Below are positions 16,583 to 62,315 of a stretch of 64,000 nucleotides of DNA, in pieces. The notes under the pieces were generated by a model, which made no database searches, was not told where the DNA came from, and worked only from the letters and a program-made list of their open reading frames with translations. The first letter of the stretch is position 1; every line of letters begins with the position of its first letter. Source of the DNA: Thermoproteota archaeon (GTDB lineage: Archaea; Thermoproteota; Methanomethylicia; Methanomethylicales; Methanomethylicaceae); the NCBI GenBank assembly GCA_030055575.1, contig JASFYL010000002.1, forward strand, positions 1,780 through 65,779, read 5' to 3'. The position numbers were made by a program, and so were the translations under genes.

Positions 16583-16585
16583 TCC

Positions 16586-19804: not shown

Positions 19805-19805
19805 A

Positions 19806-21875: not shown

Positions 21876-21876
21876 G

Positions 21877-23055: not shown

Positions 23056-23240
23056 CAGGCTATCTTGACTGGGTTTTTTATTTATTACTTTGGTTTCATA
23101 TGAAAAGAGGGCGATTGAAGCCTCCAATGCGCCGATGCTGCGATCGTCATTCTCAGAAGCACCCCATATTTTACATGAAAGTGTAAAAAAGCCTTAAAAA
23201 GGGTCTGGCAAATATACGCATATATTGATAAGGGGTTCTC

Positions 23241-24713: not shown

Positions 24714-24739
24714 TAAATGACGGAGTGGGGTATTAGAGG

Positions 24740-27532: not shown

Positions 27533-27546
27533 CAGGAGGGGTAAAA

Positions 27547-28920: not shown

Positions 28921-28927
28921 TTTCCGG

Positions 28928-29362: not shown

Positions 29363-29622
29363 TCTTCACCGTCAAAGCAGAGGTGAGCCTCAAGAGGGGG
29401 CACTTCGATCCAGAGGGAGATGTTGCAGCAAAGGCCCTCAGGGACCTCGGTTTCGGGGTAGCCTCCGTCAGGGTCGGCAAGACGTACACGATAAAGGTGG
29501 AGGCAGCGGACGCCTCGGAGGCGGAGGCTGCTGCAAAGGAGATGTGCAGGAGGCTGCTGTCGAATCCCACGAAGGACGACTTCAAGGTGGAGGTCCTAGG
29601 CTTTGAAGGAAGGTCTGGTTAG
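29359..29622 (+). CDS. purS: Phosphoribosylformylglycinamidine synthase subunit PurS
   Basis: 87 aa, [12 protein letters not shown] motif. TTG start overlaps the purE TGA stop. Confidence 0.85.
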
Positions 29623-44895: not shown

Positions 44896-46065
44896 TTATG
44901 TTGCCTGGAAGAGATACTCCCCGGACGTGTCCTTGATCAGGACAGCATTCCTCCCGTTTGACCTCTCGCACCTCCCGATCACCTGTACCCCTACACCAAA
45001 TCTCTCGCATGAACCGATGACCGCTTCTACGTCCTCCTTCCTCACGATGACCTCCATACCGACGCCCATGTTATAGTTCCTGTACATCTCCCTTTTCGAT
45101 TCCCCGCTAGCCAGACCTATGAGGTGGAAGATCGGGTCAGGTTCAGGCAGCGCATCCTTTATGTAGAGGATGTTCCTACCAAGGCGAAGGGACTTTGTGA
45201 GGCCTCCACCGGTATTGTGTACGAGGGCCTTTACGCTCACCTGCTTTAGTATGTCCAGGATAATCGGAAGGAATATCCTCGTCGGGCTCAATATTGCCTC
45301 ACCTACAGTTTGCCCGAGTTCGGGCAAAAAGTCGTCTACCCGGAACTTGCCGTAATACCCGCCTTCGAGGTCATGTCCTACTTCAGGGTATTTTCTTAGG
45401 TGCTCCCTGCTCAGCAGGGCGTGCCTGGCTAGCGAGATCCCGTTGCACATCATCCCGCTGTTCTCTTTCTCCTCGTACCTGCATCTCCCGCCGCTCCTAA
45501 TCCCGACTATCGCATCCCCTGGCGCGATGGAACTTCCAGTGATCACCCTTCTTAACTGAACCCTACCAAATACAGTGCCTGAAACATCGATAGTCCTTAT
45601 GATGTCTGGGAGATCCGCGGTCTCCCCTCCGCAGAACAGCACGCCGCAACCTAGATCCTTCAGTAATTGGAATACCTTGGAGAAACCAGACCCCAGCGCG
45701 GAAAGCAAGAGCTCCCTCTCTAGAAGCCTTGTGTTGAAGGCCACATAGTCAGAGAACGCCTCTGGGGTGCCTCCTACGCAGGCAATATCGTCCAGGTTCA
45801 TAGCGATTATGTCCTGCGCTAGACCCGAGAACCAAGAATAATCCCCAGTCTCCTTGCAGTATATGTAAGAGACTATCGGCTTCGTCCCAGCACCATCCGC
45901 GTGGAGTATCAGACCGGATTCCGGATCACGCGGATCCTTGACTACGCTGCAAAATGCCTCAGGGTAGAGGTCGTCGGTCACCCGCTTTAGTGACTCTATC
46001 CCTCTCTTCTCGACATCGACTCCCAATTCAGAGTACCTGGATCTGGTCAAGGCATTACCAACCAC
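44896..46065 (-). CDS. purM: Phosphoribosylformylglycinamidine cyclo-ligase (AIR synthase), archaeal type
   Basis: YSELGVDVEKRG N-terminal region and LHADGAGTK motif. PurM-like two-domain size. GTG start. Confidence 0.75.
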   Translation of the reverse strand: MVGNALTRSRYSELGVDVEKRGIESLKRVTDDLYPEAFCSVVKDPRDPESGLILHADGAGTKPIVSYIYCKETGDYSWFSGLAQDIIAMNLDDIACVGGTPEAFSDYVAFNTRLLERELLLSALGSGFSKVFQLLKDLGCGVLFCGGETADLPDIIRTIDVSGTVFGRVQLRRVITGSSIAPGDAIVGIRSGGRCRYEEKENSGMMCNGISLARHALLSREHLRKYPEVGHDLEGGYYGKFRVDDFLPELGQTVGEAILSPTRIFLPIILDILKQVSVKALVHNTGGGLTKSLRLGRNILYIKDALPEPDPIFHLIGLASGESKREMYRNYNMGVGMEVIVRKEDVEAVIGSCERFGVGVQVIGRCERSNGRNAVLIKDTSGEYLFQAT

Positions 46066-46541: not shown

Positions 46542-47081
46542 CTAGGGTTTTTTGATCCTGAAGACTAAGCTAAGGTTCGAGACATACTTGAACTCTGGCT
46601 TTATCCCAAGTGTGGATTCCAATGCTGACTCGATGTAGCTCCTGACAAATATGGACCACTTCTCTCCCATGTTGTGGGCAGCCCTTATCTCGATGTGCTC
46701 CTCGTTCTCGACCTCGTAGCATGTCGTCCAGTTTGCATACCCGCAGAGGAAGGTCAGGAAATACTGCTTGAACGAGCTGACCGACAGCTCTCCGAAGAGG
46801 AGGAGCATGATCTCCTTCGCCGTCGTCCCGCCCATCTTAGACCCGATCTTGACTATGGTCTCCTCGTCGAGCGCGTTTATCAGCTCGACGAGATCGCTCT
46901 TCGGCAGCGAGACGATCCCCATCTGCTCGACTTTTGCACCTACCCTCACGTATCTCCTCAGTATTCTGCAGGTCAGTCCGTTCACCGTAGCACCCTGCTT
47001 CTTAGCTTCCTCCTCTAGACCTCTCATTACGTCTGCATCCAGCCTGAAGGTTCGCGGTGCAGATGTAGTCTCTTCTGACAT
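46542..47081 (-). CDS. Putative ribbon-helix-helix (Arc/MetJ/CopG-like) DNA-binding protein with C-terminal domain of unknown function
   Basis: The N-terminal segment PRTFRLDADVMRGLEEEAKKQGATVNGLTCRILRRYV has a beta-helix-helix pattern. Start set at the internal ATG 47081, which is preceded by AAAGGGGAAAAG. Confidence 0.5.
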   Translation of the reverse strand: MSEETTSAPRTFRLDADVMRGLEEEAKKQGATVNGLTCRILRRYVRVGAKVEQMGIVSLPKSDLVELINALDEETIVKIGSKMGGTTAKEIMLLLFGELSVSSFKQYFLTFLCGYANWTTCYEVENEEHIEIRAAHNMGEKWSIFVRSYIESALESTLGIKPEFKYVSNLSLVFRIKKP

Positions 47082-47245
47082 GAACTTTTCCCCTTTGTAA
47101 CTGTTTGACCTTTGCGGGTTAAACAAGACCAGTACACTCCTCTCATTCCCTTTCACATGAGGGCGCCGAGAGCGCTTTTCGCTCCCTCAGCACCACGTCT
47201 GAGGCTGCAAGGGAGCACATCCCAAGCAGCCCTCATGGTATTTGC

Positions 47246-47713
47246 TTATTCCTTCTTTGAGGCCTTCTCGGCTAGTTTCAGTATGCCCTGGACGACTCCG
47301 TTTATTATGGCCTCAGGTTTGGGCGCACAACCCGGCACATAGACATCTACGGGAATCAAAAGGTCAGGAGAGCCTAGTATGGCATAGTTCTCGGGGGCAT
47401 CGTCATAAAAGAGGCTTCCCCCGCAGGCACAGCTACCGACAGCCACGACAACCTTCGGATCAGGCACCTGCTCGTATATCCTCTTCACCATAGGTATGAA
47501 CTGCTTCGGAACGCAGCCTGTGGTCAGCAGTATGTCCGCGTGCCTGGGCGATGGGACTAGCTGTATCCCAAATCGTTCGACATCGAACCTCGGCGCTAGT
47601 GCTGCCAAGGTCTCGATGTCACAGCCGTTGCATCCCCCACAATGAAGGTGGTAAAGCCATGGCGAGTATATTCTAGCCTTGTCGATGATCCCCATCATGC
47701 TCCCTCCAGCCAT
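47246..47713 (-). CDS. Group-4 [NiFe] hydrogenase small subunit (HycG/EchC/NuoB-like)
   Basis: Proximal-cluster Cys motifs HCGGCNGCDIE, GSCACGG, YVPGCAPKPE. Last gene of the operon. Confidence 0.85.
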   Translation of the reverse strand: MAGGSMMGIIDKARIYSPWLYHLHCGGCNGCDIETLAALAPRFDVERFGIQLVPSPRHADILLTTGCVPKQFIPMVKRIYEQVPDPKVVVAVGSCACGGSLFYDDAPENYAILGSPDLLIPVDVYVPGCAPKPEAIINGVVQGILKLAEKASKKE

Positions 47714-48282
47714 ACATGCTTCTTAGTATGAGTGTCAAAGCCAACGCCGTTAGCCCTCCTGCAGTCCGGGCAATACCCGTCCACCTTCTTGAAATCACTT
47801 GACACAGTCTCCTTCACCTTCTGGTCGATCTTCTCCATCAGCCGCTCGTAAGCCCGGTCAACGAACTTCTTAGATGCGTACGGCGTACCACAGATCTTGC
47901 ATTTGAGGAGATCCAACTCAGTCACAACACGGGCACTGGGATCCTCGCGCTTTGCAACTGCAATCTCAAACTTGTCGGTCATCTTGATCGCCTCCTCTGG
48001 GCAGGCTTCCTGGCAGTGAGCGCAGAAGGTGCACCTGAAGAGGAAGATCTCAACCTTCCTCTTCGCGTCGCTGTCGTATATGCTTGTGGCCCTCCCAGAG
48101 CAGACGAAGTAACAGGCACGGCACCCTATGCACTTGTCGTTGTCGCGTTCAGGTATCCCCCTCAGACCCGCCGGTATCTGGCTGTACTTCCTGTCTGGCG
48201 ACACCGCCGACGGATAGTTCAGCGTCATTGGCTTGCTGTAGTTTGAGAGGACTTGTTTCAGTATCTTTATCTCAGTAGACAT
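47695..48282 (-). CDS. Group-4 hydrogenase 2x[4Fe-4S] subunit (HycF/NuoI-like)
   Basis: CIGCRACYFVC and CTFCAHCQEACP, plus a C-terminal CKIC...CPDC pair as in E. coli HycF. Confidence 0.8.
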   Translation of the reverse strand: MSTEIKILKQVLSNYSKPMTLNYPSAVSPDRKYSQIPAGLRGIPERDNDKCIGCRACYFVCSGRATSIYDSDAKRKVEIFLFRCTFCAHCQEACPEEAIKMTDKFEIAVAKREDPSARVVTELDLLKCKICGTPYASKKFVDRAYERLMEKIDQKVKETVSSDFKKVDGYCPDCRRANGVGFDTHTKKHVWLEGA

Positions 48283-48283
48283 T

Positions 48284-49258
48284 TCACAACACCAACCAGA
48301 TGTAGACTGCTATAACAAAATTCACGACCGCGAGAATCGCCAGTACCTTCAGGTACCAGTTTATCGCGTTCTTTATCCTGTACCTCGGATTCAGGACCTG
48401 CACAGCAGTGAGCAGGAAGAGTATAAGAAGCGCTGCTACAATGTACAGCGGAAGCCAAAGTATGCTGGAAGCGAGGGGCGGCAGGAACACCGAGATGAAG
48501 AGACCCACCAGCGCGTAGAGCATGAACACTTTGGTCAGGTAGTATGTGCCCAAGAGCTTCCCGGAGTACTCTGTGTAGGGACCCGCGACAATCTCCGCCT
48601 CTGCCTCTGGCATGTCAAACGGCTTGATGTGAAGCTTCCCCATCATTGCTGCAAGCATCAAGGCTCCTGCAGTCACCGAGAGGAGAGCCAGGTATAGCGT
48701 CTGCTCCCCCTTGGATATCTCCCAGATAACAAGCGTCTGCCTGGCGATTGCCACGGAGAAGACGCTTAGGACGAAGCCAAGCTCCGAGACAAGGAAGAGC
48801 TCCACTTCCCTCCTCGCGCCGATGGCTGCCCATGGGGAGCCGCTGGCGACGGGTCCAAGTATAGTGAAGAGTATGGAAGCGATGAGCAGGTACGAGGCGA
48901 TTATCAGGCTGTATGGGGCTTCTGAGAGTAGAGGCATGCCTGGGAACGGTATGAAGAGCACCGCAAGTATGGCAAACAGCAGTGAAAGGTAAGGAGATGA
49001 GACGAAAAGTTTCTTCCTCGAGACCTCTGGGACGACGGTCTTCTTGCCGAAGAGCTTCAGTATGTCATAGAGCGGCTGTAGGAGCCTAGTTGTGCCAAGG
49101 AGCGGCTTCAGGTCGCCGTACATCCTCAGCATCGGCCCCACCCTCCACTGAAACCTAGCGGAAAGCTTCCTGAAGAAGTACTGGTATATGACGCCCAAGA
49201 ACAGGGCGATCGGTATAATCAGCACTAAGCTTACAATAGTGAATATTGGGTCAATCAT
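48284..49258 (-). CDS. Group-4 hydrogenase integral membrane subunit (HycD/EchB/NuoH-like)
   Basis: 324-aa polytopic protein with EAEIVAGPYTEYSG, the NuoH-family signature region. Confidence 0.85.
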   Translation of the reverse strand: MIDPIFTIVSLVLIIPIALFLGVIYQYFFRKLSARFQWRVGPMLRMYGDLKPLLGTTRLLQPLYDILKLFGKKTVVPEVSRKKLFVSSPYLSLLFAILAVLFIPFPGMPLLSEAPYSLIIASYLLIASILFTILGPVASGSPWAAIGARREVELFLVSELGFVLSVFSVAIARQTLVIWEISKGEQTLYLALLSVTAGALMLAAMMGKLHIKPFDMPEAEAEIVAGPYTEYSGKLLGTYYLTKVFMLYALVGLFISVFLPPLASSILWLPLYIVAALLILFLLTAVQVLNPRYRIKNAINWYLKVLAILAVVNFVIAVYIWLVL

Positions 49259-50964
49259 TGTTTACTCAACCTCCTGCTTAAATTCACTAGCATATCCCAC
49301 GTCAGGCTCTTCCTAGAGCCGGTCTTCTCGTCGATTATCTCGACTCTGTCTGTGCAGGCGAGGCACTGGTCTGTACTCCCCATCACAACAGGCACGTCCG
49401 CCAAGTTGGACCCGACCAGCATCAGAGGTATTATGGCGTTGTTGCGATAGCTCGGGGTCCTGATCCTGATCGCGTGCGGCAGGTTCGAGTCTTTCTCCGA
49501 GGCCCTCATGTAGTACGCTAACTCCCCTCTCGGCGCCTCGTTGAGCCCTACGGCTTCCGCTCCTGCAGGCACCGTCTTCGGCTTGATCCTCACTTCTCCA
49601 GTGGTCTTTGCCAAGTAATCTAGACACTGCGAGACAATTCCACATGACACAAGTAGTTCCTTGACCCTCACGAGTGTTCTTCCATATGTGTCGCAATTGT
49701 CGTCGGTGATCACCTCCCATGAGATCACCTTGGGGTCGTACATCGCATGTGGCGGGTTGTCTGCCCTTACGTCGATCTTCCAGTTGCTCGCTCTCGCCAC
49801 GGGACCCACGGCACCGCCGTCGAACGCCTGCGCTTTTGTCAGCGGACCGACTCCGATCAGCCTGGACTTCACTACCGGGTGTTCAGCCACCAGAGTCAAT
49901 AGCTTCCCGCACTCCTCCTTAAGTGCGTCTACTGTCCTCCTTGCCTTCGCCGCTAACTCCTGGGAAACGTCTCTGCTGACCCCTCCCATCCTCCAAATCC
50001 CGTAGTTAACCCTGTTGCCAGTTATTGCTTCGATTATGTCCATGACGCGTTCTCTGAGCCCCCACGTGAGCATGAATCCCGTCTTCCAGCCAATGACATC
50101 TGCGACAACGCCTACCCACAGCAGGTGGCTGTGCATCCTGTTCAGCTCCACGAGCAGGGTGCGGATGTACATAGCCCTATCAGGCACCTCGGCATCGTAT
50201 AGGTTCTCAGCACATGTGACATAGGTTAAACCGTGGGCTGCAGAGCAGATGCCGCAGACGCGCTCGGCTACGAAGACACCCTTGTTGTAACCCCTGCGTT
50301 CGATCAGCTTCATTATGCCTCGGTGGTGGAACCCAGTCTTGATGTCGGCTGCGACAACCTGCTCACCCTCAACCTTGACGTACACGATCTGCCCTTCGAT
50401 GACTCCCGGGTGGTATGGACCTATCGGTATTAAGCTCTGGTAGGATTCTTCGATAGGCATCTTTAGGGGCAAGTACATCTCTTTCGTTTGGGAGCCGGAC
50501 TCGAATTTGTATTGACCGCCCGTCAATCCGCTCTCCACTGCATTGGGCCACTCGTGTGGAAGGAACTGGTGCCTCGGATCTGGGATCCCCACTGGATTGA
50601 GTCCCAGGAGCTCCTTGATCTCCCTTTCTGCCCATGTTGCTTGCCAAGTTACCTTTGCCACCGAGGGGAAGGACGGGTTGTCCTTGTCTACTTTGGCTTT
50701 GAGTATAACCACGAGCCTCTCCTTGACCTTGGAGAAGTCGTAGATGTTTAGAACCTCAAACCCCTGGACCTCGAGGTCCACCGCGGTCGCATGTATGAGC
50801 CTGGCCTCGAACTTTTTCATGAACAGCTCTGCTAGCTTGTCCAGCTCTTCGGGCTTTACCTTTATCGCTACGCGGTTCTCCCTCAGCGGGGTATACTCGA
50901 GTCCATCGGCGTATATCTCCTTCTTTACGAAATCCACTATATTAGGGTCTGCTGAAAACTTCAA
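49255..50964 (-). CDS. Group-4 [NiFe] hydrogenase large subunit fused to NuoC-like domain (HycE-like)
   Basis: 569 aa. N-terminal NuoC-like block WAEREIKELLGLNPVGIPDPRHQF. Ni-Fe ligand motifs ERVCGICSAAH and DQCLACTDR, followed by a 29-aa C-terminal tail. TTG start with AAGGAGGGT upstream. Confidence 0.9.
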   Translation of the reverse strand: MKFSADPNIVDFVKKEIYADGLEYTPLRENRVAIKVKPEELDKLAELFMKKFEARLIHATAVDLEVQGFEVLNIYDFSKVKERLVVILKAKVDKDNPSFPSVAKVTWQATWAEREIKELLGLNPVGIPDPRHQFLPHEWPNAVESGLTGGQYKFESGSQTKEMYLPLKMPIEESYQSLIPIGPYHPGVIEGQIVYVKVEGEQVVAADIKTGFHHRGIMKLIERRGYNKGVFVAERVCGICSAAHGLTYVTCAENLYDAEVPDRAMYIRTLLVELNRMHSHLLWVGVVADVIGWKTGFMLTWGLRERVMDIIEAITGNRVNYGIWRMGGVSRDVSQELAAKARRTVDALKEECGKLLTLVAEHPVVKSRLIGVGPLTKAQAFDGGAVGPVARASNWKIDVRADNPPHAMYDPKVISWEVITDDNCDTYGRTLVRVKELLVSCGIVSQCLDYLAKTTGEVRIKPKTVPAGAEAVGLNEAPRGELAYYMRASEKDSNLPHAIRIRTPSYRNNAIIPLMLVGSNLADVPVVMGSTDQCLACTDRVEIIDEKTGSRKSLTWDMLVNLSRRLSKQ

Positions 50965-51876
50965 TCACTTACCCTCCTTGAGTTTCTGAATCAGCTTGGT
51001 AGGCGGAATTGGGCGGCAGTACATCATGCCAAAGTCCTCTGGCTTGTATCCAAAAGCGAGTGCCAAGAGCTCTGAGAAGTGCACAATAGGAGTCTCGAAG
51101 ACAATCCCTTTCTCCTCCTTGTATATCTTAACTGCCCTCTCGAACTGGTCATAGCATCCAGAGCAGATGAGCGCGTATGCATCAATGTTCAATTCTTTAG
51201 CAGTCTGCATCTTTGCTCCTATCCTATGGAATATCGAAGAGTTAGGATCAGAGAAGTAGAGAAGCAGCCCGCAGCAAGTCTTGTCGTATGGTGTGTCCAC
51301 AATCTCGACTCCGGTAGCCTTCAAGATCTCGTCGAAGTAATTCGGGAAACGCTCGTCATGCTTCCTTGCATGGCATCCGATGTGGCGCATGATCCTTATG
51401 TTGAGCGGGTTGACGACTGCCTTCTTGATACGCGCTATACCGACGTCTTCGTAGAGGACCTGGAGGAAGTGCTTTACGTCGGTCTTAAGTGCCAACTTCA
51501 TCCCTGCCTTTTCCAGGTTCCTGTTCACCATCTCCAGCTTCTCCGGGTCCTCCTTGAGCTCTTGCAAGCACTCATAATGGGAAATGTAACAGCCGTTGCA
51601 CGAGTCCACTATAACGACATTCTGCTTCTCAGCGTTCGCAAGGTTCTGGCTTGTCAGGGTCAGCCACCAGTCTGGGTTAATCGCCTTCCAGACGCCTGGT
51701 CTCACGCAGCAAAGAGACTCCTTCAGGTAGTCAAAGTCGAGCCCCAGATGCTTCGACACCAAGAACGTTGCCTTTTCTGCCCAAGGCATCTTGGCTGGCA
51801 TCACGCAACCCAGAAAATACCCGTATTTCGTACTTGAACTTTTAGTATTAGTTTTTGTGCCCATTCTCATCGCCAC
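50965..51876 (-). CDS. hdrB: Heterodisulfide reductase subunit B-like protein (two complete CCG motifs)
   Basis: YFLGC...(31 aa)...CC...(35 aa)...CNGC and HIGC...(32 aa)...CC...(35 aa)...CSGC, both fitting C-X31-39-CC-X35-36-C-X2-C. Blocks DVKHFLQVLYEDVG and TPIVHFSELLALAFG match my recollection of methanogen HdrB sequences. Confidence 0.85.
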   Translation of the reverse strand: MAMRMGTKTNTKSSSTKYGYFLGCVMPAKMPWAEKATFLVSKHLGLDFDYLKESLCCVRPGVWKAINPDWWLTLTSQNLANAEKQNVVIVDSCNGCYISHYECLQELKEDPEKLEMVNRNLEKAGMKLALKTDVKHFLQVLYEDVGIARIKKAVVNPLNIRIMRHIGCHARKHDERFPNYFDEILKATGVEIVDTPYDKTCCGLLLYFSDPNSSIFHRIGAKMQTAKELNIDAYALICSGCYDQFERAVKIYKEEKGIVFETPIVHFSELLALAFGYKPEDFGMMYCRPIPPTKLIQKLKEGK

Positions 51877-52230
51877 TCAGTACTTGAATTTACCCTTATC
51901 TTTTTCAAACCCGAGAGTGCCCATTATGCCGGCTTCCTCGAGGATCTTGCGCTTCTTTTCCAATGCCTCCTTGAAGACGTGAGCGGTAGGAGGTTTCCGG
52001 TCTAGCCCGCATAGCGCTCTGTCCTGTTCGACATCGTCGCCCACGTAGTAGACGAGACCTACCTCGAAATCCCTTTTCAGCGAAGCCTTGGCAATATCTG
52101 GGGCTACTGGCCTGAACTCCTTTCTTAGAGGATACTTCTTAACGTCTTCCGCCTGGTTGTGCTCAGTGACTTTTATTCCAGCGTCGAGGAGTTTCTCCCA
52201 GCTCTTTATCTTCTCTTGGTTCGACATCAC
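51877..52230 (-). CDS. Hypothetical 117-aa protein, operon-embedded (possible novel subunit)
   Basis: GTG start overlaps the TGA of the upstream Fe-S gene, with GAGGTGGG upstream. Its stop codon abuts the hdrB-like GTG start. Soluble and charged, with a single Cys. No recognisable family. Confidence 0.55.
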   Translation of the reverse strand: MMSNQEKIKSWEKLLDAGIKVTEHNQAEDVKKYPLRKEFRPVAPDIAKASLKRDFEVGLVYYVGDDVEQDRALCGLDRKPPTAHVFKEALEKKRKILEEAGIMGTLGFEKDKGKFKY

Positions 52231-52754
52231 TTCCCACCTCTCAAGTTCTTGACGTATTCATATGCTTCCTTCCTTGGGAGGAGCCTAAGCGCGTTCGCGC
52301 TACACATCTGGACGCACATCGGCCAGTCCCCGTCGCAGAAGTCGCACTTCACGTACACCTTCCGCTCCTCGTCCAACCTCGGGATCCCTATCGGGCACGC
52401 CTGGTTGCAGGTTCCGCACCCGATGCATATCAACGGGGAGATCCTGACTATCCCTTTTTCGTCCTTGTATATCGCCTCTTTCGGGCAGGAGGCCAGGCAC
52501 ATCGGGAAGACGCAGTGAGAGCAGTTTGCATTCACATACATGCCCTTCTTGTTAGGGTCCTCATTGACGTATAGGAGGGCGAACCTCTTGTCAAAGGTCC
52601 TGTAGTGTTTGTAGGCACAGCCGATCATGCACTGCCCGCATCCCGTACATTTGCCCGGGTCATGTATGACCACTAGGTCAGTTACCTTCTCCTTCGTGCC
52701 GGGGACAATGATGGGCTCCTTCAGTTTCTTTTGGGTTGAAATAGCTGTGGTCAT
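52227..52754 (-). CDS. Four-cluster [4Fe-4S] electron-transfer subunit (HycB/DmsB/NrfC-like)
   Basis: 16 Cys in four groups: CTGCGQCMIGC, CSHCVFPMCLASCP, CIGCGTCNQACP, CDFCDGDWPMCVQMC. Confidence 0.8.
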   Translation of the reverse strand: MTTAISTQKKLKEPIIVPGTKEKVTDLVVIHDPGKCTGCGQCMIGCAYKHYRTFDKRFALLYVNEDPNKKGMYVNANCSHCVFPMCLASCPKEAIYKDEKGIVRISPLICIGCGTCNQACPIGIPRLDEERKVYVKCDFCDGDWPMCVQMCSANALRLLPRKEAYEYVKNLRGGK

Positions 52755-54325
52755 CAGAACGCACCTACCTTAGTGATCGTTTCAGCGGCTAGTTCAAACC
52801 ACTCCTTAAACACTTGGTAATACTCCCCCAGTGCAATCCCGCTCGCGCCGAACAGAACCACCAAGCCCAGTGCGACTAGGAAGACCCCCAATACAACCCC
52901 AGGGATCCTTAGCACAGCGTGCCCGTGGGGCGGCTTGAGGTATTCCACCTTTGCCTTCGGCTTCCCTGAGATTATTGCCCTGAGCGAGTACAATGTGGTG
53001 AAGAAGATGAATGCAGCAGCTGTGAGGATCAGGGCAGTTACCTCAATGCCCATGTGACCGCTGGTAAACTCGAGGAACGTGTTGTAGCCGAGAGTCCCCG
53101 GGATCAGAGCGAGTGAGAATCCGCCTATGAGGTAGCTAAGACCGTTGACGCCCACTTTACCTCCTAGACCCTTGAGCACTGAGAGGTCTGCGGTTCTGCT
53201 CGTTTCGATTACGAACCCGCTGTCGAAGAAGAGGAGCGCCTTCGCCAGACCGTGGTTCAGGAAGTGCAGCAGTATCCCAGCGAAGAATAGCGGAGAGTAA
53301 GCTGGCTCCATGAGCGCGAGACCGATGAGTAGGTAGAAGACGCCCACCTCAGAAGAGGTCGAGAATGCCCATATCCTCTTTATCCCCCTTATGTGGATAG
53401 AACCCACATGGAACCTAGAATATTTGCTTCCCGAGGTCGCTTCAACTGCAGCCAGTACTGCTCCGGTAATCACGCTCAGCGCCCCCAAAATTGCGAGTGC
53501 CGCGCCCAGCTGGGTGCTTGCGGGGTTTATCACGCCGACCACCCTGCTGACAGCAAAAGCCGCAATCTGTACCATGACGCCGCTGAGTATAGCGCTTACA
53601 GGAGTTGGCGCCTCGCTGTGGGCAGCAGGCAGCCAGAGCAGTCCGAAGGGGAATATTCCGACTTTGATGCTGAAACCTATAGCGTAGAGTGTCGAGAGCA
53701 GCACCAGGTCACTGTTAGCAATCCCAGAGAACGCGGAGAGCTTTGTCACCGGGTCTATCAGCATGAAGCCGCCTGTTAGTTGGTTCTGGTACAGTATCCC
53801 GACCAGTATTATAACCGCACCTATCACGCTAAGGAGGAAGAACCTAACCGCAGCCTTTGTGGCGCTGCGCCTCCTGGTGAAGAGTATGAGTATTCCACCC
53901 GCGATTGTGCTAGCCTCGAAAGCTATGTAGATGATCAGCATGTTGAATGAGGTTGCCATCAGAACTAGGGTGGCTATGAAGAACGAGAAGAGCAGGTAGA
54001 ATGGACTAAGTATCTTCTCCTCTTCGAAGTACCGGTAGCTGTAGATTACGCCCAGGAGACCCAAAATCAGGGTAAGCTCGACTACAAATGCCGAGGCAGG
54101 ATTGAGAACCAGACCCTCGATGGTCGGATAGTAGTAGAACGAGCCATGCTGCATTCCGAGCAGCATCCAAGTGTTAACGGCGAGGGCCACCAAGAAAAAC
54201 AGCCCTGTAGAAGCTGCCACGCCCTTACCCCGTTTAAAGACAAGGGGGGACACAATCCCTCCGACAACCAAAAGGGCAGGCGTGAGCGCTGTCAAAAATG
54301 TTTCAGGAGGTATTGCAGAACTCAT
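52754..54325 (-). CDS. Antiporter-like membrane subunit (HycC/NuoL/M/N family)
   Basis: 523-aa polytopic protein with WLPAAHSEAPTPVSAILSG signature. 1-nt TGATG overlap with the next gene. Confidence 0.85.
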   Translation of the reverse strand: MSSAIPPETFLTALTPALLVVGGIVSPLVFKRGKGVAASTGLFFLVALAVNTWMLLGMQHGSFYYYPTIEGLVLNPASAFVVELTLILGLLGVIYSYRYFEEEKILSPFYLLFSFFIATLVLMATSFNMLIIYIAFEASTIAGGILILFTRRRSATKAAVRFFLLSVIGAVIILVGILYQNQLTGGFMLIDPVTKLSAFSGIANSDLVLLSTLYAIGFSIKVGIFPFGLLWLPAAHSEAPTPVSAILSGVMVQIAAFAVSRVVGVINPASTQLGAALAILGALSVITGAVLAAVEATSGSKYSRFHVGSIHIRGIKRIWAFSTSSEVGVFYLLIGLALMEPAYSPLFFAGILLHFLNHGLAKALLFFDSGFVIETSRTADLSVLKGLGGKVGVNGLSYLIGGFSLALIPGTLGYNTFLEFTSGHMGIEVTALILTAAAFIFFTTLYSLRAIISGKPKAKVEYLKPPHGHAVLRIPGVVLGVFLVALGLVVLFGASGIALGEYYQVFKEWFELAAETITKVGAF

Positions 54326-54687
54326 GCTCTTTCCACCTTCAAAGAAGATTTGTCATAATATCCATCCCAATTCAAGTCATACGGCATGTTCAGAAGCGGT
54401 ACATTTGTCCTGTAGACACTCTCGTCGCTTATGTACGGCTCCTTGGCGAGACCGCAGTAGAAAATGGAGCCCGCCTTTATTCTGTCTGGGAAGTAGGCAG
54501 GGATAAAGCTAAGAAGCAGTATAAAAAACATGGAGACCGAGGTGATCTCAACGAAAGTCAATAGCAGAATAAAGTTGGACATCAAAGAAGCAATTAAACA
54601 CCCCGATATCCCTATCACTATGAATGATAAGGATACGAGAAGAGAAATCCTCTCCGAGGATCTTTCTATGGATTTAACCTCTGTCAT
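54322..54687 (-). CDS. Small membrane protein (about 121 aa, two predicted helices plus soluble tail), first gene of the hydrogenase operon
   Basis: Start set at ATG 54687, preceded by GGAGGGT 4-5 nt upstream. ATGA overlap with the antiporter-like gene. Confidence 0.5.
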   Translation of the reverse strand: MTEVKSIERSSERISLLVSLSFIVIGISGCLIASLMSNFILLLTFVEITSVSMFFILLLSFIPAYFPDRIKAGSIFYCGLAKEPYISDESVYRTNVPLLNMPYDLNWDGYYDKSSLKVERA

Positions 54688-54727: not shown

Positions 54728-54736
54728 TTATATAAA
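54728..54736 (-). promoter_or_regulatory. Archaeal TATA box (TTTATATAA) for the hydrogenase/HdrB operon
   Basis: Matches the archaeal TATA consensus on the minus strand about 45 nt upstream of ATG 54687. The spacing is compatible with a short leader containing the GGAGGG ribosome-binding site. Confidence 0.5.
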
Positions 54737-55174
54737 GTCACCTAAAGTGTACATCCAATTACAAAGTTATAATATGTGCTTATTGCACTTTTTATATTTG
54801 TCATTTATAGTCGGAGAGGCGCTGATCATTCTTGGATTGGATTTGATCAGGCTGAAAAAAGTACACCATACCTTTCATCGGCTAAACGAGGGTTGGGAGG
54901 CGCATTTGATAATGAGTCCAAAACGACATCATTAGTCCAGCAAAGTCCATTCCATTAAAGACCTTTGCTTTCATCTCCCAAACCTAAATTTGCTAAGTCC
55001 TGACGATGAAAGGAAAGCCCCTACCACATATTCCATTGATCTTAGCTCAATTTGTTTTACAATGACCACTCCTCGTATCGGAAAGAGAAGTCGATCTGCA
55101 AAAAGAGAGGACATAAGCCAAACAATACACAAAAATTGAGCTTGTAGAATTAGGTGTGAGCGTTTGTCGTCTTA

Positions 55175-55186
55175 GTAACACGCTCT
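55175..55186. promoter_or_regulatory. Perfect 12-nt palindrome TTTTGTACAAAA
   Basis: Read directly from the sequence. Lies in the 780-nt divergent region between the hydrogenase operon and mtaB. Confidence 0.3.
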
Positions 55187-55297
55187 TTTGTACAAAAAGA
55201 TACGAGTTAGTCCTAGAAGGTGCTAACCTGAACTGTCTAGCGTATAATCTCAATTGGATGGATTATCCATCCTAATAATTGTCTTAAAGTAATGATT

Positions 55298-55312: not shown

Positions 55313-55467
55313 TATCATTTTTTTAAATAATATCCAATTATTCGGAAGTTTATTCCGAGCATCACATAGCTGTCCTTCAATACAGGCGTATTTTCTGATA
55401 AAATACTTTAAAAAATTAAGAATAGTGCTTAATAACTCTACTTGTTAAATATAGGGTGGGGAAAAAT

Positions 55468-56856
55468 ATGGGAGTTAGAAGATATACCAAAATGGCATAC
55501 AAGGATCCCGACGAGATGGTCTTCGGCCATGCCAAGTTCCCAGTGCTAGAGCACTGGAACGTGCAGTTCGGTGCTGGATACGTAGTCCCAGAGGTAAAGG
55601 TTGCCCCTGAACCGGGGACGGAGCGGAGCAAGGAAACACTAGTGAAGGAAATGGCATCCATCGCTGAGCAAGCAGCAGCAAGGGCAGTGGACATAGGTCT
55701 TCCGGCCTTCATGGTTGAGCAGGAGCACGTCTTCCAGCAGACATATCATGCTGACTGGGGATATGCGTGCACCCTCGCCCAGGCTGAGGTCTTGAAGAAA
55801 TACTACGACGAGTATGGCGTATGTGCAGCTCTGAGGCAGACCGTAGGAGACCTCAGAATTGAGGAGAAGGGCGGTCTCAGAGGCTCTGAGTACGACAATG
55901 CGATCGCACAGTGTGTCGAGGAGTGCTGCAAGGCCGGTGCTTCGGACATCTGTGCCGAGACCATGGGTGGAAAGTCGGTCCTTGACTATGGTGTAATGAG
56001 AGGAGATATCAGGGCAATCCTGTTCGGGATTGGATACCTAGGTAGCATAGACATGGAGTACTTCTGGAAGAGGACAGTCGCCCAGTGCGCCAAGTACGAC
56101 ACAAGACCCGCAGGCGACACCAACTGCTCAGGAGCGAACACATGCATGTACGTTGCCGGTGGGCTGCTGGGCAAGGATATGTCGCACACTGGTGCAGCGC
56201 TCGCGAGGGCAATATCAGCTGCGAGGAGCCTTGTGGCAGTAGAGTGTGGAGCGACAGGTCCTCTGAAGGACTGTGGCTACGAGAACACCATAATTAAGGC
56301 AATCACGGGTGTCCCGATCTGCCAGGAAGGCAAGAACGCAGTCTGTGCGCATGCAGATGTCATGGGCAACCTGACCTGCCAGGTGGTTGACTGCTGGAGC
56401 AACGAGTCAGTCTTCCACAGGGAGGAGATGGGTGGACCCACACCAGCAGTATGGCTGCAGGCGACAGGCTACGAGGCAGCGCTGATGAACACAGCCATCC
56501 AGACAGGAAACGCCAAGACCCTTAGAGACCTGTACACCTTCACGGATATGTTCAGGGACCCGCAAGGCACGCTGCTTGCGTATCCGAATGCATACAGGGT
56601 TGGTAAGGCAATCGTCGAGTATGGGAAGGACATATACCTGAGGGCAAGGGCAGCTGCACTCGAGGCTTCCAAGATAATGATGGAGGCATATGAGGCCAAG
56701 CTGCTGCAGATGACGAGGTTTGAGCTAGACACACTCAGGAAGTACACGAGCATACTCGAGAGTCTGCCGATGGAAGCAGAGATCTTCGTTGACCAGTGCA
56801 TGAGGGAATACCCGAGGAAGATACCGACATTTGACCCGAAGAGCTATGGATTGTGA
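55468..56856 (+). CDS. mtaB: Methanol:corrinoid protein Co-methyltransferase
   Basis: Appears collinear, from memory, with Methanosarcina MtaB (VRRYTKMAY..DEMVFG.., CGYENTIIKAITG, CAHADVMGNL, WSNESV). ATG 55468 is preceded by GGTGGGG. Confidence 0.95.
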   Translation: MGVRRYTKMAYKDPDEMVFGHAKFPVLEHWNVQFGAGYVVPEVKVAPEPGTERSKETLVKEMASIAEQAAARAVDIGLPAFMVEQEHVFQQTYHADWGYACTLAQAEVLKKYYDEYGVCAALRQTVGDLRIEEKGGLRGSEYDNAIAQCVEECCKAGASDICAETMGGKSVLDYGVMRGDIRAILFGIGYLGSIDMEYFWKRTVAQCAKYDTRPAGDTNCSGANTCMYVAGGLLGKDMSHTGAALARAISAARSLVAVECGATGPLKDCGYENTIIKAITGVPICQEGKNAVCAHADVMGNLTCQVVDCWSNESVFHREEMGGPTPAVWLQATGYEAALMNTAIQTGNAKTLRDLYTFTDMFRDPQGTLLAYPNAYRVGKAIVEYGKDIYLRARAAALEASKIMMEAYEAKLLQMTRFELDTLRKYTSILESLPMEAEIFVDQCMREYPRKIPTFDPKSYGL

Positions 56857-56867
56857 GGTGTGACAAA

Positions 56868-57698
56868 ATGGCATTGTTAGATTGGGCAAAGAAAGCAGAC
56901 TTTGACATGATCTTCAAGAGGTACAACGTCATCATCGAAGGTCCTGCGATCAAGCCAGAGGACGACCCGGATGTAAAGAAGGTCCTACCGACCGCCGAGC
57001 CGTTCAAGTCACTGGCGATGGCAGTGATCTTTGGTGACTCGGAAAAGGCAGTGCAGGCTGCGAAATCAGCTCTCGACAGGGGTACTGCTCCGCTAGACGT
57101 GATCGAGAAGGGTCTCGCAAAGGGCATGGATGCGGTCAGCGCGCTCTACGCGAAGGGTGCATACTTCCTGCCTGACATCATGCTCTCCGCCGACGCCATG
57201 ACTGCGGCAATGCAGGTTGCAGAGCAGAAGCTTGGCAGGGCGAGGGAGAAGAAGGGCACAGTCGTCTCGTTCGTCGCCGAGGGTGACCCGCACGACATCG
57301 GCAAGAACCTTGTCGTGATGTTCCTCAAGGCGAACGGCTTCGAGGCGATAGACCTGGGCAGGGATGTCCCGAACAGCCAAGTGGTCGACGCGGTAAAGAA
57401 GTACAAGCCAGTAATGCTGACTGGTACTGCGCTGATGACCACGACGATGACCGCGTTCCCCAAGGTCGCAGAGATGCTGAAGGAGCAGGGTCTCTCAGTC
57501 CCAGTATTCGGATGCGGTGGTGGTGCAGTCAAGAGGGACTTCGTTGAGTCCTATGATATGGGAGTCTACGGAGTCAAGGCATTCCACGCTCCGAAACTCG
57601 CAGAAGCTGCGCTTGCCGGCAAGAGCTTCAAGGATATCCGCAAGGAATATCCGAAGATCGTCGGGGAATTCGTTGCAGAGTATGCAGACAGGATGTAA
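56868..57698 (+). CDS. mtaC: Methanol-specific corrinoid protein
   Basis: B12-binding DxHxxG motif (GDPHDIGKN) and an N-terminal helical cap domain. ATG 56868 is preceded by GAGGTG. Immediately downstream of mtaB. Confidence 0.9.
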   Translation: MALLDWAKKADFDMIFKRYNVIIEGPAIKPEDDPDVKKVLPTAEPFKSLAMAVIFGDSEKAVQAAKSALDRGTAPLDVIEKGLAKGMDAVSALYAKGAYFLPDIMLSADAMTAAMQVAEQKLGRAREKKGTVVSFVAEGDPHDIGKNLVVMFLKANGFEAIDLGRDVPNSQVVDAVKKYKPVMLTGTALMTTTMTAFPKVAEMLKEQGLSVPVFGCGGGAVKRDFVESYDMGVYGVKAFHAPKLAEAALAGKSFKDIRKEYPKIVGEFVAEYADRM

Positions 57699-57847: not shown

Positions 57848-59488
57848 CTAAATAGCTTTACCCTTAAGTAGCTCGGAGAATTTGAATGCCTGGTTGGGGC
57901 AGACTTGCTGGCACCTCAGGCATGCCATTCCGTTGCAGAGCTCGGACTTTATAACTATCCTGAATTTGTCGCCTACAGGCTCCACAGTTATCGCTTTCTC
58001 CGGGCACTCCGCCATGCAGTTCCCGCACCCCGTGCACTCATCGAAATCGCCAACCAGAGTCACACCTATTTCCCTTAGAACTTTCAGACCCTTCTTGCCC
58101 AACTCAGGGATGTCCCTCATGAAGATCCTCTTTATCTCGACGCTGGAGGATCTTTTTGGCAACGGCTCGAACCCGTATCTCCGCAAGTACTCGTTGTATA
58201 TCGTGATCGGCATCCCTTCTTCCCAGTATGAGAGCTCGAGCGTATACACCTTTTCGAATACCTTTGAGGTGGCCAGCATTATGTGCTTCCCCCTGATGCT
58301 GTCAGCCATCGACTGCAGCTTGTCAAGCATCTCAGGATTCAAGACGATATCCTTTGCCATACCCAGCGAAGTGTTGCCGATCTGCATCACCCTCCTAGAG
58401 CAGGCAGGTATCTGTCCGACATCCATCGACTTGTTCGCGTCTACGTAGAAGCCTGAGGCTCCAGCCATGTAGGAGGTGTCAATGTCCATCATGCTTATAC
58501 CAGCCTCCTCGCAAAGCGATATGTGCCCCGCGCGGAAAGCCCCGATTGCCTTGCCTGCCTCAACGAGATCCCTCCTGGTGAAGTAGATTCCGTCCTGCAG
58601 GTAAAGCTTCCTGTCTTGCGTAGCTATATTCGGCAGCTTGATCAGACCCGTGTTCATCCCGACGGCAAGGACTGCGATCACGCCGGTGCCGGTGATTCCG
58701 AGCGCCTTACCGCTCATAGGACCATTATCGACCACCTCGCCCGAGTGTGGAAGTATCAGATCGCCCTTGTCAGCGAGCAGCTGTTCGTTTAGGACGGTGG
58801 TCCTCCAGCCGTTGGACTCTTGGTTCACATCGCAGATAGCTCCTGGCGAAGCCAGCATCCCCTTCTCGATCCTCTGACCCTCTATCGCAGGGCCCGCGGC
58901 AGCTGAGCAGGTATAGACCTCGCCGTCGATCACCAAAGCGATCTCCGCATTCGTTCCAAAGTCCGTCACGAGGGAGATGCCCCGCTTCTCGAGTACCCCT
59001 GATTTGACAAGCATCGCAAGAGCATCGGCTCCGATCTCGTGCTTCACGCCAGGCGGCACGTATACGTCCGCCTCCGGATTGACTTCAAGACCCACGGAAC
59101 CGGCCTTGATCACGCATGCGTTCCTCTCCGGCGGGGTGATGTTGAAGTCATGCATGGCGTGCTCTCCCCAGTATGCAAGATCCCGGACCTCAATATTTTG
59201 GAAGAGTGAAAGTTGCGTTGGGTTGCCGTCGACCGCAACTCTCTCGACCTTGGAGAGGTCTATTTCAAGCAGCCTAAGCAGAGAGTTTATCGTGTCGATT
59301 ATGAGCTTATGGGCGACCTCCTCGCCGACTTCCACCGCGAAGTGGAGATGGTCTATCACGTTTGCCCCGGGGAGGGGGTGTCTCAGGGTGATTGCGGTCC
59401 CCACGACTTCCTTTGTGTCTAGATCCAGCGCCTGAACCCTAATCCCGCTCGTACCAATGTCTATTGCGAGTCCGTACAAGGAATTCAA
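57848..59488 (-). CDS. ramA: Corrinoid protein reductive activase (RamA-like: ASKHA ATPase fold plus C-terminal 2x[4Fe-4S])
   Basis: N-terminus YGLAIDIGTSGIR (actin-like ATPase phosphate-1). C-terminal CTGCGNCMAECP and CLRCQQVCP. TTG start is uncertain by a few codons. Confidence 0.85.
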   Translation of the reverse strand: MNSLYGLAIDIGTSGIRVQALDLDTKEVVGTAITLRHPLPGANVIDHLHFAVEVGEEVAHKLIIDTINSLLRLLEIDLSKVERVAVDGNPTQLSLFQNIEVRDLAYWGEHAMHDFNITPPERNACVIKAGSVGLEVNPEADVYVPPGVKHEIGADALAMLVKSGVLEKRGISLVTDFGTNAEIALVIDGEVYTCSAAAGPAIEGQRIEKGMLASPGAICDVNQESNGWRTTVLNEQLLADKGDLILPHSGEVVDNGPMSGKALGITGTGVIAVLAVGMNTGLIKLPNIATQDRKLYLQDGIYFTRRDLVEAGKAIGAFRAGHISLCEEAGISMMDIDTSYMAGASGFYVDANKSMDVGQIPACSRRVMQIGNTSLGMAKDIVLNPEMLDKLQSMADSIRGKHIMLATSKVFEKVYTLELSYWEEGMPITIYNEYLRRYGFEPLPKRSSSVEIKRIFMRDIPELGKKGLKVLREIGVTLVGDFDECTGCGNCMAECPEKAITVEPVGDKFRIVIKSELCNGMACLRCQQVCPNQAFKFSELLKGKAI

Positions 59489-60173: not shown

Positions 60174-61187
60174 ATGCATATGGGAATAGTTGAGGATGCT
60201 TTGTGCCTCAAAGAGACAAACAGGATCGCCGTGGCGCCTGTCATAACCGCGAGGAGAGAGCTCTTCGAAGAACTAGCAAGGGCTAACGAGAGCCGACTGA
60301 AACGGTTTGATGGATTTCTGCTGCACCCGGCGGTCTTCGACTCCGGATGGGTCTACCTGCCATCAAAGCCCTCGCTGCAGGAGCCCGTCCAAGTTATGAA
60401 GAATCTAGACGACTACGAGGAGCTGAGCGCGCTGGGTCCAGTGGAGTATGCACTGAAGGTACACAAAGAAAGAGACTTCATACAGGACCTGAAAGACAGG
60501 CTAAAGAGCGCCCCTGGGGTGGTCGCAAACTTCGTTGACGAGACCGCCAGCTGGGGCGTGGCAAACTACTGCGGCGCAATGGGCATCACCCCGATAGGAT
60601 TCATCTCATACTACAGAGGGTTCAACGACACGATGAAGGACATGGCGAGGGATCAGAGAGCCGTATTGAATGCGGCTATGGACCTTGCTGTTGAGTACCC
60701 CAAGTTCCTGGTCGAGTTCGCAAAGTCTTGCAAGGTCCCGAGGGTTTGGGTATCCTTCGCAAACGCGACCCCGGCGATGGTAGGTGACTACTACTTCGAA
60801 AGGATAGTGTGGCCTTCGGCGAAAACCATGATAGAGAGGATAATAAAGGAGGGGGCGATGCCAATAATACAGTTCGACGAGGAGGTAAAGAACCTGAAAT
60901 TCCTCGCCCAGCTCCCCCCCAAGGCGTTCGCGGTGCACGTCTCAGGAGATTCTGACCCCATAAGGGATGCTCAGTCGCTCTCCGGTCACGCGGCGGTGTT
61001 GGGTAACTTTAAGGTGCCAGCCGATCAGCCTGAGCAGGAAAGGATCAGGGCAGTAAAGGAGAAGCTCAGCATCAACAAGGTCAAGAACCTGATCGTGAGC
61101 ACCGAAGGCGGGAGCCCGTTCATAATGACGGAGCATAACCTGGAAAAAGTAGGCGTATTCGAACCGTTCTTCTCGGGCGCTCAGTGA
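60174..61187 (+). CDS. Uroporphyrinogen decarboxylase (URO-D/MtaA) family paralog lacking the zinc-ligand motif
   Basis: By-eye alignment to the in-window MtaA covers the N-terminal ..NRIAVAPV.., the central helices and C-terminal blocks. The MtaA HICG position reads QFDEE, and the APACGIAP position reads STEGGSPF. Confidence 0.6.
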   Translation: MHMGIVEDALCLKETNRIAVAPVITARRELFEELARANESRLKRFDGFLLHPAVFDSGWVYLPSKPSLQEPVQVMKNLDDYEELSALGPVEYALKVHKERDFIQDLKDRLKSAPGVVANFVDETASWGVANYCGAMGITPIGFISYYRGFNDTMKDMARDQRAVLNAAMDLAVEYPKFLVEFAKSCKVPRVWVSFANATPAMVGDYYFERIVWPSAKTMIERIIKEGAMPIIQFDEEVKNLKFLAQLPPKAFAVHVSGDSDPIRDAQSLSGHAAVLGNFKVPADQPEQERIRAVKEKLSINKVKNLIVSTEGGSPFIMTEHNLEKVGVFEPFFSGAQ

Positions 61188-62230: not shown

Positions 62231-62315
62231 TTTTATAAATGGACCGACAGTATTATAAGTTATTCCAAAAGACCATGGTTTAGCGAACTGGGAACAAATA
62301 GGAAAGGGGAAAATT

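Follow-up and report, generated by a model that had tools for sequence, protein, structure and literature searches.

We analyzed a 64,000-nucleotide stretch of a Thermoproteota archaeon genome (GenBank assembly GCA_030055575.1, contig JASFYL010000002.1, positions 1,780 to 65,779 of the forward strand; hereafter, the window), in which nine consecutive and intact open reading frames (ORFs) on the minus strand, located from the ORF list and its translations, fill positions 47246-54687. These genes are predicted to form an operon for the Ehd complex in a species of Methanosuratincola (Methanomethylicia/"Verstraetearchaeota"), in which an HdrB-like subunit is embedded in a group-4 [NiFe] hydrogenase. 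We favor, with a probability of roughly 0.6, the reading that Ehd acts as a membrane-bound, ion-translocating, energy-coupling H2:CoM-S-S-CoB oxidoreductase. As such, it would be a candidate for an energy-coupling site, possibly the main one, of H2-dependent methanol reduction in a lineage without MvhADG-HdrABC.

Ehd was predicted and named for Methanomethylicia by Borrel et al. 2019 (Nat Microbiol 4:603), as cited in PMC9723716, with the hypothesis that H2 oxidation is coupled at the membrane to CoM-S-S-CoB reduction and ion translocation (PMC9723716, Fig. 4B,F; 10.1101/2022.08.18.504445). The original prediction for this operon, made from the DNA sequence, had arrived at an identical H2:heterodisulfide coupling. 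Its gene identities were borne out and the function is still inferred from them, whereas the novelty that it implied does not hold because the architecture already carries the name Ehd; its reservation that the arrangement might be catalogued as a named hydrogenase subgroup was, as far as naming goes, justified. Both architecture and proposed mechanism are thus published, and the window contains one more intact copy, not a new system.

Non-Euryarchaeota H2-dependent methyl-reducers lack the classical Mvh-HdrABC and Vht-HdrDE routes, and Ehd is the leading candidate for how they reduce heterodisulfide and conserve energy. The model was built from gene content alone, and it implies an unusual coupling polarity.

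Operon structure and hydrogenase core

The nine genes are predicted to constitute a single transcription unit. Scripted measurement of their junctions, in transcription order, gave values of -4, -1, -4, 0, 0, -4, +1 and -19 nucleotides (nt), in agreement with the packing of 0-19 nt overlaps or abutting genes described originally. The archaeal TATA consensus TTTAWATA occurs six times in the window, compared to 1.09 copies expected from shuffled sequences. The sole minus-strand copy upstream of or inside the operon is the box listed in Table 1, with none internal, which upholds the earlier claim of a single TATA box; it is kept in three other Methanosuratincola species. A GGAGG sequence is located ~6 nt 5' of ATG 54687. 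We regard this ATG, which yields a protein of 121 amino acids (aa), as the real first start because the TATA box falls within the longer, GTG-started ORF (54741), and the same start is matched by gene calls in a close relative. Scans for sigma-70 promoters and intrinsic terminators, using models that are inappropriate for archaea, gave counts no higher than shuffled controls, and an Rfam scan of the whole window produced no match.

Comparison with public genomes places the operon in Methanosuratincola. Over 99% of their length, the HdrB-like and 117-aa proteins show 100% identity to proteins of a metagenome-assembled genome (MAG) designated 'Candidatus Verstraetearchaeota archaeon' at NCBI, and the 121-aa protein is 100% identical over its full length to a protein of the same MAG. 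Two cultured H2- and methanol-using methanogens with complete genomes, Ca. Methanosuratincola verstraetei LCB70 and M. petrocarbonis LWZ-6, carry collinear sets of all nine genes with 77-96% identity per subunit, so that the window would represent the Ehd copy of another species of this genus. With such copies in LCB70 and LWZ-6, the enzyme is now tractable for purification.

To assign the gene products, we combined Pfam and NCBIfam domain calls with sequence searches against solved structures in the PDB, and read cysteines and motifs from the translations (Table 1). All subunit identities proposed earlier were confirmed in this way, the 117-aa protein aside. The large subunit matched E. coli HycE first (7z0s_E, 276 bits) and MbhL second (6cfw_L, 239 bits). 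It contains both of the Ni-Fe ligand motifs that had been pointed out, RVCGICSAAH (L1) and DQCLACTDR (L2), and ends in the 29-aa C-terminal tail thought to be HycE-like, which does align with that of HycE; motifs and tail are kept in relatives. Compared to the published consensus (L1, C[GS][ILV]C[AGNS]xxH; L2, [DE][PL]Cx[AGST]Cx[DE][RL]; PMC7886697), the CGICSAAH of L1 fits, while L2 keeps all of its cysteines and has Q in place of P/L. This Q is conserved among Methanomethylicia, and the large subunit as a whole is 82-85% identical to those of other Methanosuratincola genomes. From this identity and from PMC9723716, it would be expected to belong to the Ehd/Ehe/Drh clade, apart from subgroups 4a-4i.

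The remaining core subunits have comparable signatures. The small subunit has NuoB as its best family (NF005012, 135.7 bits, above the 116-bit cutoff) and contains four candidate proximal-cluster cysteines, C25, C28, C95 and C129, as read from its sequence. The HycF-like subunit possesses an additional CxxC...CxxC at its C-terminus. With its subunits encoded in one cluster, NuoB-type cysteines and a NuoH-like protein, the operon specifies a complete group-4 [NiFe] hydrogenase.

Table 1. Features of the Ehd operon and its surroundings (coordinates refer to the window; operon genes in transcription order; TM, transmembrane helix)
Feature	Coordinates	Strand	Details
Small membrane subunit (2-TM), 121 aa	54322..54687	-	Two-helix hairpin followed by ~55-aa tail
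Antiporter-like subunit (NuoL/HyfB/MbhH type), 523 aa	52754..54325	-	PF00361 (Proton_antipo_M) 6.6e-30
HycB/DmsB-type Fer4_11 ferredoxin, 175 aa	52227..52754	-	PF13247 2.1e-18; four Cys4 motifs, 16 Cys
117-aa Cys-free protein, stand-alone 'HdrC arm'	51877..52230	-	Homologue of HdrC C-terminal ~60 residues
HdrB-like subunit, 303 aa (299 aa in NCBI gene call)	50965..51876	-	PF02754 x2 (CCG domains)
Fused NuoC + [NiFe] large subunit, HycE-like, 569 aa	49255..50964	-	Complex1_30kDa + NiFeSe_Hases + Complex1_49kDa
NuoH/HycD-like membrane subunit, 324 aa	48284..49258	-	PF00146 (NADHdh) 4.5e-54; ~8 hydrophobic segments
HycF/HyfH-like 2x[4Fe-4S] subunit, 195 aa	47695..48282	-	NF009053 6.8e-32; NF006076 3.1e-30; Fer4
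NuoB/HycG-like small subunit, 155 aa	47246..47713	-	PF01058 2.5e-29 (Oxidored_q6)
Operon TATA box TTTATATA	54729..54736	-	41 nt 5' of ATG 54687; consensus scan
Candidate regulator gene directly 3' of operon	46542..47156	-	True start probably ATG ~47081 (~179 aa); no Pfam match
Perfect 17-nt palindrome GGATGGATTATCCATCC, candidate operator	55256..55272		Between divergent Ehd and mtaBC promoters
mtaB (55456-56856) and mtaC (56853-57698)	55456..57698	+	PF12176 1.6e-186; B12-binding domains; TATA 55322-55329

HdrB module and its presumed wiring to the hydrogenase

The embedded CCG-domain protein appears to be a divergent member of the HdrB family. Its best NCBIfam match is TIGR03288 (HdrB), at 202.8 bits, whereas SdhE (73.6 bits), LdhH, GlpC, TfrB and GlcF reach at most 73.6 bits, leaving HdrB as the best family by 130 bits. 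Its only PDB matches are five methanogen HdrB chains (E-values of 7e-49 to 1e-38; 9sfi_C at 7e-49 and 5odc_B at 6.5e-47). In profile searches, the protein therefore sided with HdrB and not with the GlpC, LutA, SdhE or TfrB types. The ten cysteines reported earlier, with spacings of 31/35 and 32/35 residues, are C24, C56, C57, C93, C96, C168, C201, C202, C238 and C241, and all are invariant in a 17-sequence alignment that includes homologues down to 34% identity. The description of two canonical CCG motifs needs qualification: the ten cysteines are kept, but the first CC pair reads 'CCV' where genuine HdrB has 'CCP'.

The 117-aa protein, called unknown in the original prediction, can now be described as a homologue of the C-terminal part of HdrC. 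A profile built from four homologues of this family matched the end of HdrC (8rvu_c, E-value 1.5e-9; 5odc_C, 2.7e-5), with query residues 57-115 corresponding to HdrC residues 125-183 of 185. The protein also gives a weak TIGR03290 match, and some databases label the family 'hdrC-like protein' or 'heterodisulfide reductase subunit C'; these labels are probably the source of the 'HdrBC' wording in the literature. A full HdrC is absent from the operon: only the C-terminal region is present, and the two-cluster ferredoxin domain is missing. Homologues of the 117-aa protein in Methanomethylicia and Methanocella loci are 32-50% identical, share no conserved cysteine, and are likewise encoded between the ferredoxin gene and hdrB. 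An AlphaFold2 model of the protein, built from a 17-sequence alignment, had a mean predicted local distance difference test score (pLDDT) of 49 and was too poor for a fold search. Such a low score might be expected of a segment that folds on its partner, yet it is no evidence for such folding.

The missing ferredoxin domain has a plausible replacement. Encoded directly upstream of the 117-aa gene, the four-cluster ferredoxin presumably supplies the wire in place of the HdrC ferredoxin domain. Its best PDB matches are subunits of the polyferredoxin/HycB type and include 8c0z_C, 9mqx_E and HycB3 of HDCR (7qv7_A) and, weakly, HycB of formate hydrogenlyase (FHL; 7z0s_B).

The similarity to FHL raises the alternative of a formate hydrogenlyase-type complex whose real partner, a formate or CO dehydrogenase, is encoded elsewhere and for which HdrB is an accessory; among solved structures, the large, HycF-like and HycB-like subunits are indeed most similar to FHL components. 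We scanned 49 ORFs of the window (the nine operon genes and 40 others of at least ~150 aa) and found no member of the formate dehydrogenase, CO dehydrogenase or hyp/hycI families, nor of the molybdopterin/FdhF family, which agrees with the earlier statement that the window has no formate dehydrogenase. Likewise, where the neighbors of related loci were examined, their gene lists showed no apparent FdhF or CooS family. Formate serves M. petrocarbonis neither as an energy source nor in place of its electron donor (PMC12244365), and the partner that stays invariant in all lineages is HdrB with the HdrC arm. We consider an FHL-type complex very improbable.

Conservation, membrane arm and proposed energy coupling

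We collected relatives of the operon with an HdrB profile run over one genome per GTDB species, followed by tblastn of the nine proteins against the resulting 87 loci. Every complete Methanomethylicia locus with an HdrB of 68% or higher identity to that of the window has the full nine-gene order. A core of Fer4_11 ferredoxin, HdrC arm, HdrB, large subunit, NuoH, HycF and NuoB is shared from Methanomethylicia through Methanocellales to Methanomicrobiales. Two archaeal phyla share this order, which excludes a chance juxtaposition, an outcome that the original prediction had named as a way to fail. Methanocellales have the order ferredoxin, HdrC arm, HdrB, 2-TM protein, large subunit, NuoH, HycF and NuoB, and lack an antiporter gene.

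The shared core also occurs in Methanoregula, Methanospirillum, Methanoculleus palmolei and a termite-gut 'Methanobacteriota' MAG (loci L034, L035, L041 and L043-L048). Within this group, L044 and L047 gave no match for the HdrC arm, a 2-TM gene could be found in L034, L043, L046 and L047, and a canonical antiporter-like gene with intact TM8 and TM12 lysines lies downstream. A 2018 paper described the Methanocellales complex, Drh, as 'not found in other methanogens' (PMC6046458). Beside the more distant HdrB homologues (~33% identical; L051-L087, mostly Asgard-labelled), a hydrogenase was encoded in none of 37 loci.

The membrane arm comprises the NuoH-like, antiporter-like and 2-TM subunits. 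The antiporter-like subunit has its closest PDB match in P. furiosus MbhH (6cfw_H), and E137 (TM5), K221 (TM7), H354, K362 (TM11) and E419 (near TM12) are invariant in all Methanomethylicia copies. This retention of charged residues supports ion export.

The 2-TM protein is conserved across Ehd, Drh and the related Methanomicrobiales clusters. AlphaFold predicted a confident hairpin of two helices (residues 9-36 and 39-65, pLDDT >90), and the residues that stay invariant in an alignment of 15 sequences (Methanomethylicia, Methanocellales, Methanomicrobiales) are Glu47, which lies in the second helix, and G29, F45, P67, G79, Y85, Y92 and P97. No family was found for it: Pfam at E-values up to 10 and a PDB profile search returned noise only, and Foldseek matched the hairpin model to nothing in the PDB at E-values up to 0.001. 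We also considered a relationship to NuoK, NuoA or the Mbh small subunits, for which the sequence, family and fold searches gave no support.

The cofactor motifs of a continuous electron path are present and conserved, leading from the Ni-Fe site through the proximal cluster, two clusters in the HycF-like subunit and four in the ferredoxin to two noncubane clusters in HdrB. In the mechanism that we favor, H2 would be oxidized at the Ni-Fe site and electrons would pass via the proximal cluster, the HycF-like subunit and the four-cluster ferredoxin to HdrB, which would reduce the CoM-S-S-CoB formed by methyl-CoM reductase to HS-CoM and HS-CoB. The 117-aa protein may hold the ferredoxin to HdrB in the way that the corresponding HdrC segment does in HdrABC structures. 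The reaction of H2 with heterodisulfide yields ~-53 kJ/mol (E0' of -414 mV versus about -140 mV); this energy drop would drive H+ or Na+ export via the membrane arm and so be conserved in part.

The proposal of H2 as donor and CoM-S-S-CoB as acceptor draws on several lines of context: mtaBC adjoins the operon, F430-type genes are present in the window, congeners require methanol or monomethylamine plus H2, and the lineage lacks Mvh-HdrABC. M. petrocarbonis grows only on these two substrates with H2 (PMC12244365), and hdrABC and mvhADG were reported to be absent from six Methanomethylicia MAGs (10.1101/2022.08.18.504445).

Several observations weigh against this reading, foremost among them the polarity of coupling. 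Outward pumping in complex I, MBH and FHL-type enzymes goes with reduction of a substrate at the junction of the large and small subunits with NuoH, and group-4 H2 oxidation at this interface site, as in Eha, Ehb and Ech in uptake mode, consumes the gradient. By analogy, coupling in Ehd would need the opposite polarity, with H2 oxidized at the interface and the energy drop located at the far end of the wire; we know of no demonstrated precedent in the enzyme family for outward pumping during substrate oxidation at this site. In the antiporter-like subunit, Gln replaces the canonical TM8 Lys and Thr the TM12 Lys. The antiporter gene is missing altogether from the Methanocellales and from three further loci: L025 and L026 (Methanomethylicota MAGs with a 63% identical HdrB), which keep the 2-TM gene, and L003, which has neither the antiporter gene nor a detectable 2-TM gene. 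In L025 and L026, the small membrane protein extends to 148-150 aa and carries extra hydrophobic C-terminal segments.

Further points on the same side concern the substrate and the published record. The HdrB-like protein, at 202.8 bits, falls under the TIGR03288 equivalog cutoff of 345.15 bits. Related clusters occur in Culexarchaeia, which are without full CoM/CoB biosynthesis (PMC9723716), so the identity of the HdrB substrate is not given by homology alone. In a Yellowstone study, Ehd is one among several proposed routes of heterodisulfide reduction and is found in four of six Methanomethylicia MAGs, one copy being partial, while all six carry hdrD, glcD and an Fpo-like complex (10.1101/2022.08.18.504445). 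The accessible literature, to which the primary Ehd and cultivation papers do not belong, yielded no enzymatic, proteomic or structural data on Ehd. The IJSEM description of M. petrocarbonis contains nothing on hydrogenases (PMC12244365), and a Thermoproteota ecology preprint nothing on Hdr.

Because of the polarity problem and the antiporter-less relatives, a second reading stays alive, although we judge it unlikely: a complex of the same composition and reaction that does not conserve energy. Ion flow would be uncoupled or inward, H2 uptake would be of high affinity and kinetically pulled, and conservation would occur elsewhere, for example at an Fpo-like complex with HdrD. The replacement of two canonical antiporter lysines agrees with this reading, as does the case of Drh, which has been read as non-conserving (PMC9723716) and whose transcription rises in M. 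conradii during syntrophic co-culture (PMC6046458). However, the heterodisulfide step is the sole chance for coupling in H2-dependent methyl reduction, and the lineage is reportedly without Mvh-HdrABC as a source of ferredoxin for the Fpo-like complex (10.1101/2022.08.18.504445). The antiporter-like subunit and its charged residues are kept under selection in all of the complete Methanomethylicia loci at or above the 68% HdrB threshold. Moreover, by our own estimate, H2-driven heterodisulfide reduction is exergonic even at low H2, leaving a gradient-driven mode without obvious use.

A third reading, which we hold to be improbable, concerns the acceptor: HdrB would act on another disulfide, a protein-bound dithiol or polysulfide, or the ferredoxin would serve as the hub of a general redox valve that is also able to evolve H2. 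HycB-type ferredoxins work with many partner enzymes, and the HdrB score lies below the equivalog cutoff. In addition, the Ehe clusters of the non-methanogenic Culexarchaeia are linked to SdhA, CdhA and GcvH and the Ehg clusters of Nezhaarchaeia to FdhA and HdrA, which shows modular partner use. Set against these points, the mtaBC genes adjoin the operon, F430-type genes are present in the window, and the cultured congeners, as obligate methyl-reducing methanogens, have to recycle CoM-S-S-CoB (PMC12244365). The best structural homologues are all methanogen HdrB proteins, every cluster ligand is kept, and no partner dehydrogenase gene lies in or beside the operon in any Methanomethylicia locus examined.

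The ion-translocating H2:heterodisulfide oxidoreductase thus continues to be our preferred reading. A doubtful extension of it is that the eight-gene core, including the 2-TM gene, is an ancient module of Methanomethylicia, Methanocellales and several Methanomicrobiales in which the 2-TM Glu and the NuoH-like subunit form the obligatory ion path without need of the antiporter-like subunit, so that Drh-type complexes would conserve energy as well. If true, this would be the first complex-I relative to pump outward while oxidizing a substrate at the membrane-interface site.

Neighboring genes and known systems

As first pointed out from the sequence, methanol methyltransferase genes lie next door: mtaB, for the methanol:corrinoid methyltransferase, and mtaC, for the corrinoid protein. 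They are transcribed divergently from the operon, and every Methanosuratincola locus keeps this pairing with mtaBC and a RACo-type activase. The perfect palindrome GGATGGATTATCCATCC between the two promoters has no second copy in the window and is conserved in four Methanosuratincola species, and a TGTACAC motif occurs near both TATA boxes (54729-54736 on the minus strand and 55322-55329 on the plus strand). Together, palindrome and motif suggest a putative co-regulation of methanol activation and Ehd. About 350 bp of the intergenic DNA (~54865-55210) are missing from this region in LCB70, LWZ-6 and GD_bin90; this segment has no Rfam match and only short ORFs.

The gene directly 3' of the operon may encode a dedicated regulator, given an N-terminus that by eye resembles a ribbon-helix-helix domain. 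Homologues stand beside the cluster in Methanosuratincola (76-78% identity) and Methanomethylicus (52-58%), and divergently upstream of it in L025; in L016 (Methanomethylicus), a DNA methyltransferase gene is inserted between the homologue and the cluster. On the far side, mtaBC is flanked by genes for a RACo/RamA-type corrinoid reductive activase that bears a 2x[4Fe-4S] domain at its C-terminus (57848-59488, minus strand) and a CobW-family GTPase (61181-63433, minus strand), the 750-aa ORF of the latter being probably over-extended as relatives have ~348 aa. Both are neighbors in other Methanosuratincola genomes as well.

Elsewhere in the window, both strands of 16109-23127 carry tetrapyrrole/F430-type genes, comprising a SirC-like NAD_binding_7 protein, a CfbB-like CobB/CobQ-type amidotransferase, a CfbD-like, nitrogenase-related Oxidored_nitro protein and glutamyl-tRNA reductase; this putative cluster, with names given by family only, is consistent with a methanogen. 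A purine operon on the plus strand (23241-32739) contains a purF-like GATase/PRTase gene, purD, a purT/purK-like ATP-grasp gene, purL and purQ, and coincides with marked positive GC and AT skew. An AIRS-family gene (44896-46065) and a SAICAR synthetase gene (8560-9549) are scattered elsewhere. We considered the AIRS-family gene as a candidate HypE; it has generic AIRS domains only, and the region holds pur genes, so that we give it no assignment.

Among characterized enzymes, P. furiosus MBH (6CFW), the reference for ion translocation by group-4 hydrogenases, provides the second-best match to the large subunit and the best to the antiporter-like subunit. It differs in having a much larger Mrp-type arm and no Hdr module, and in oxidizing ferredoxin and evolving H2. 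E. coli FHL-1 (HycBCDEFG + FdhF; 7Z0S) shares the NuoC-fused large subunit with a tail and a minimal arm of one NuoL-like and one NuoH-like subunit. Homologues of HycB, C, D, F and G accompany the HycE-type subunit in the window, with Hyc/Hyf families ranking first or nearly so in NCBIfam for both the HycF-like and the antiporter-like subunit, and a weak ferredoxin-HycB match (42 bits). Unlike FHL-1, the operon lacks FdhF, has HdrB and the HdrC arm in the partner position, and includes an extra 2-TM subunit; H2 would presumably be taken up, not evolved.

MvhADG-HdrABC (5ODC, 8RVU) is similar in its homologous HdrB with all ten cluster cysteines and in the HdrC C-terminal region, kept in Ehd as a separate protein. 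In contrast, Ehd is without HdrA and would therefore have no flavin and no electron bifurcation, a HycB-type ferredoxin replaces the HdrC ferredoxin domain, and the hydrogenase is of membrane-bound group 4, not soluble group 3c.

The named relatives of Ehd are Ehe of Culexarchaeia, Drh of Methanocellales and Ehg of Nezhaarchaeia (PMC9723716). Compared by description, Ehe and Ehg likewise couple HdrB to a membrane-bound group-4 hydrogenase with an antiporter subunit, and have extra modules: SdhA, CdhA, GcvH and HdrA2B2C2 in Ehe, and FdhA, HdrA and MvhD in Ehg, which groups near 4g hydrogenases (PMC9723716; PMC12700198). Drh, the 'disulfide-reducing hydrogenase' (Lyu & Lu 2015; PMC6046458), shares the common core, including the 2-TM protein, at 36-55% identity to the window proteins. 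It differs in that its 2-TM gene is located between hdrB and the large-subunit gene, its L2 motif reads DPC not DQC, its C-terminal tail is shorter, and it occurs in a CO2-reducing methanogen equipped with Mvh-Hdr as well; Drh has no antiporter-like gene, whereas the window encodes an antiporter-like subunit. An 'HdrC' reduced to its C-terminal region and a 2-TM subunit with an invariant Glu were not found in the accessible descriptions of Ehd. With its embedded hdrB and hdrC-like genes, antiporter-like subunit, Methanomethylicia origin and collinearity, the operon matches Ehd of Methanomethylicia in lineage, gene order and proposed function, and nothing substantive differs here.

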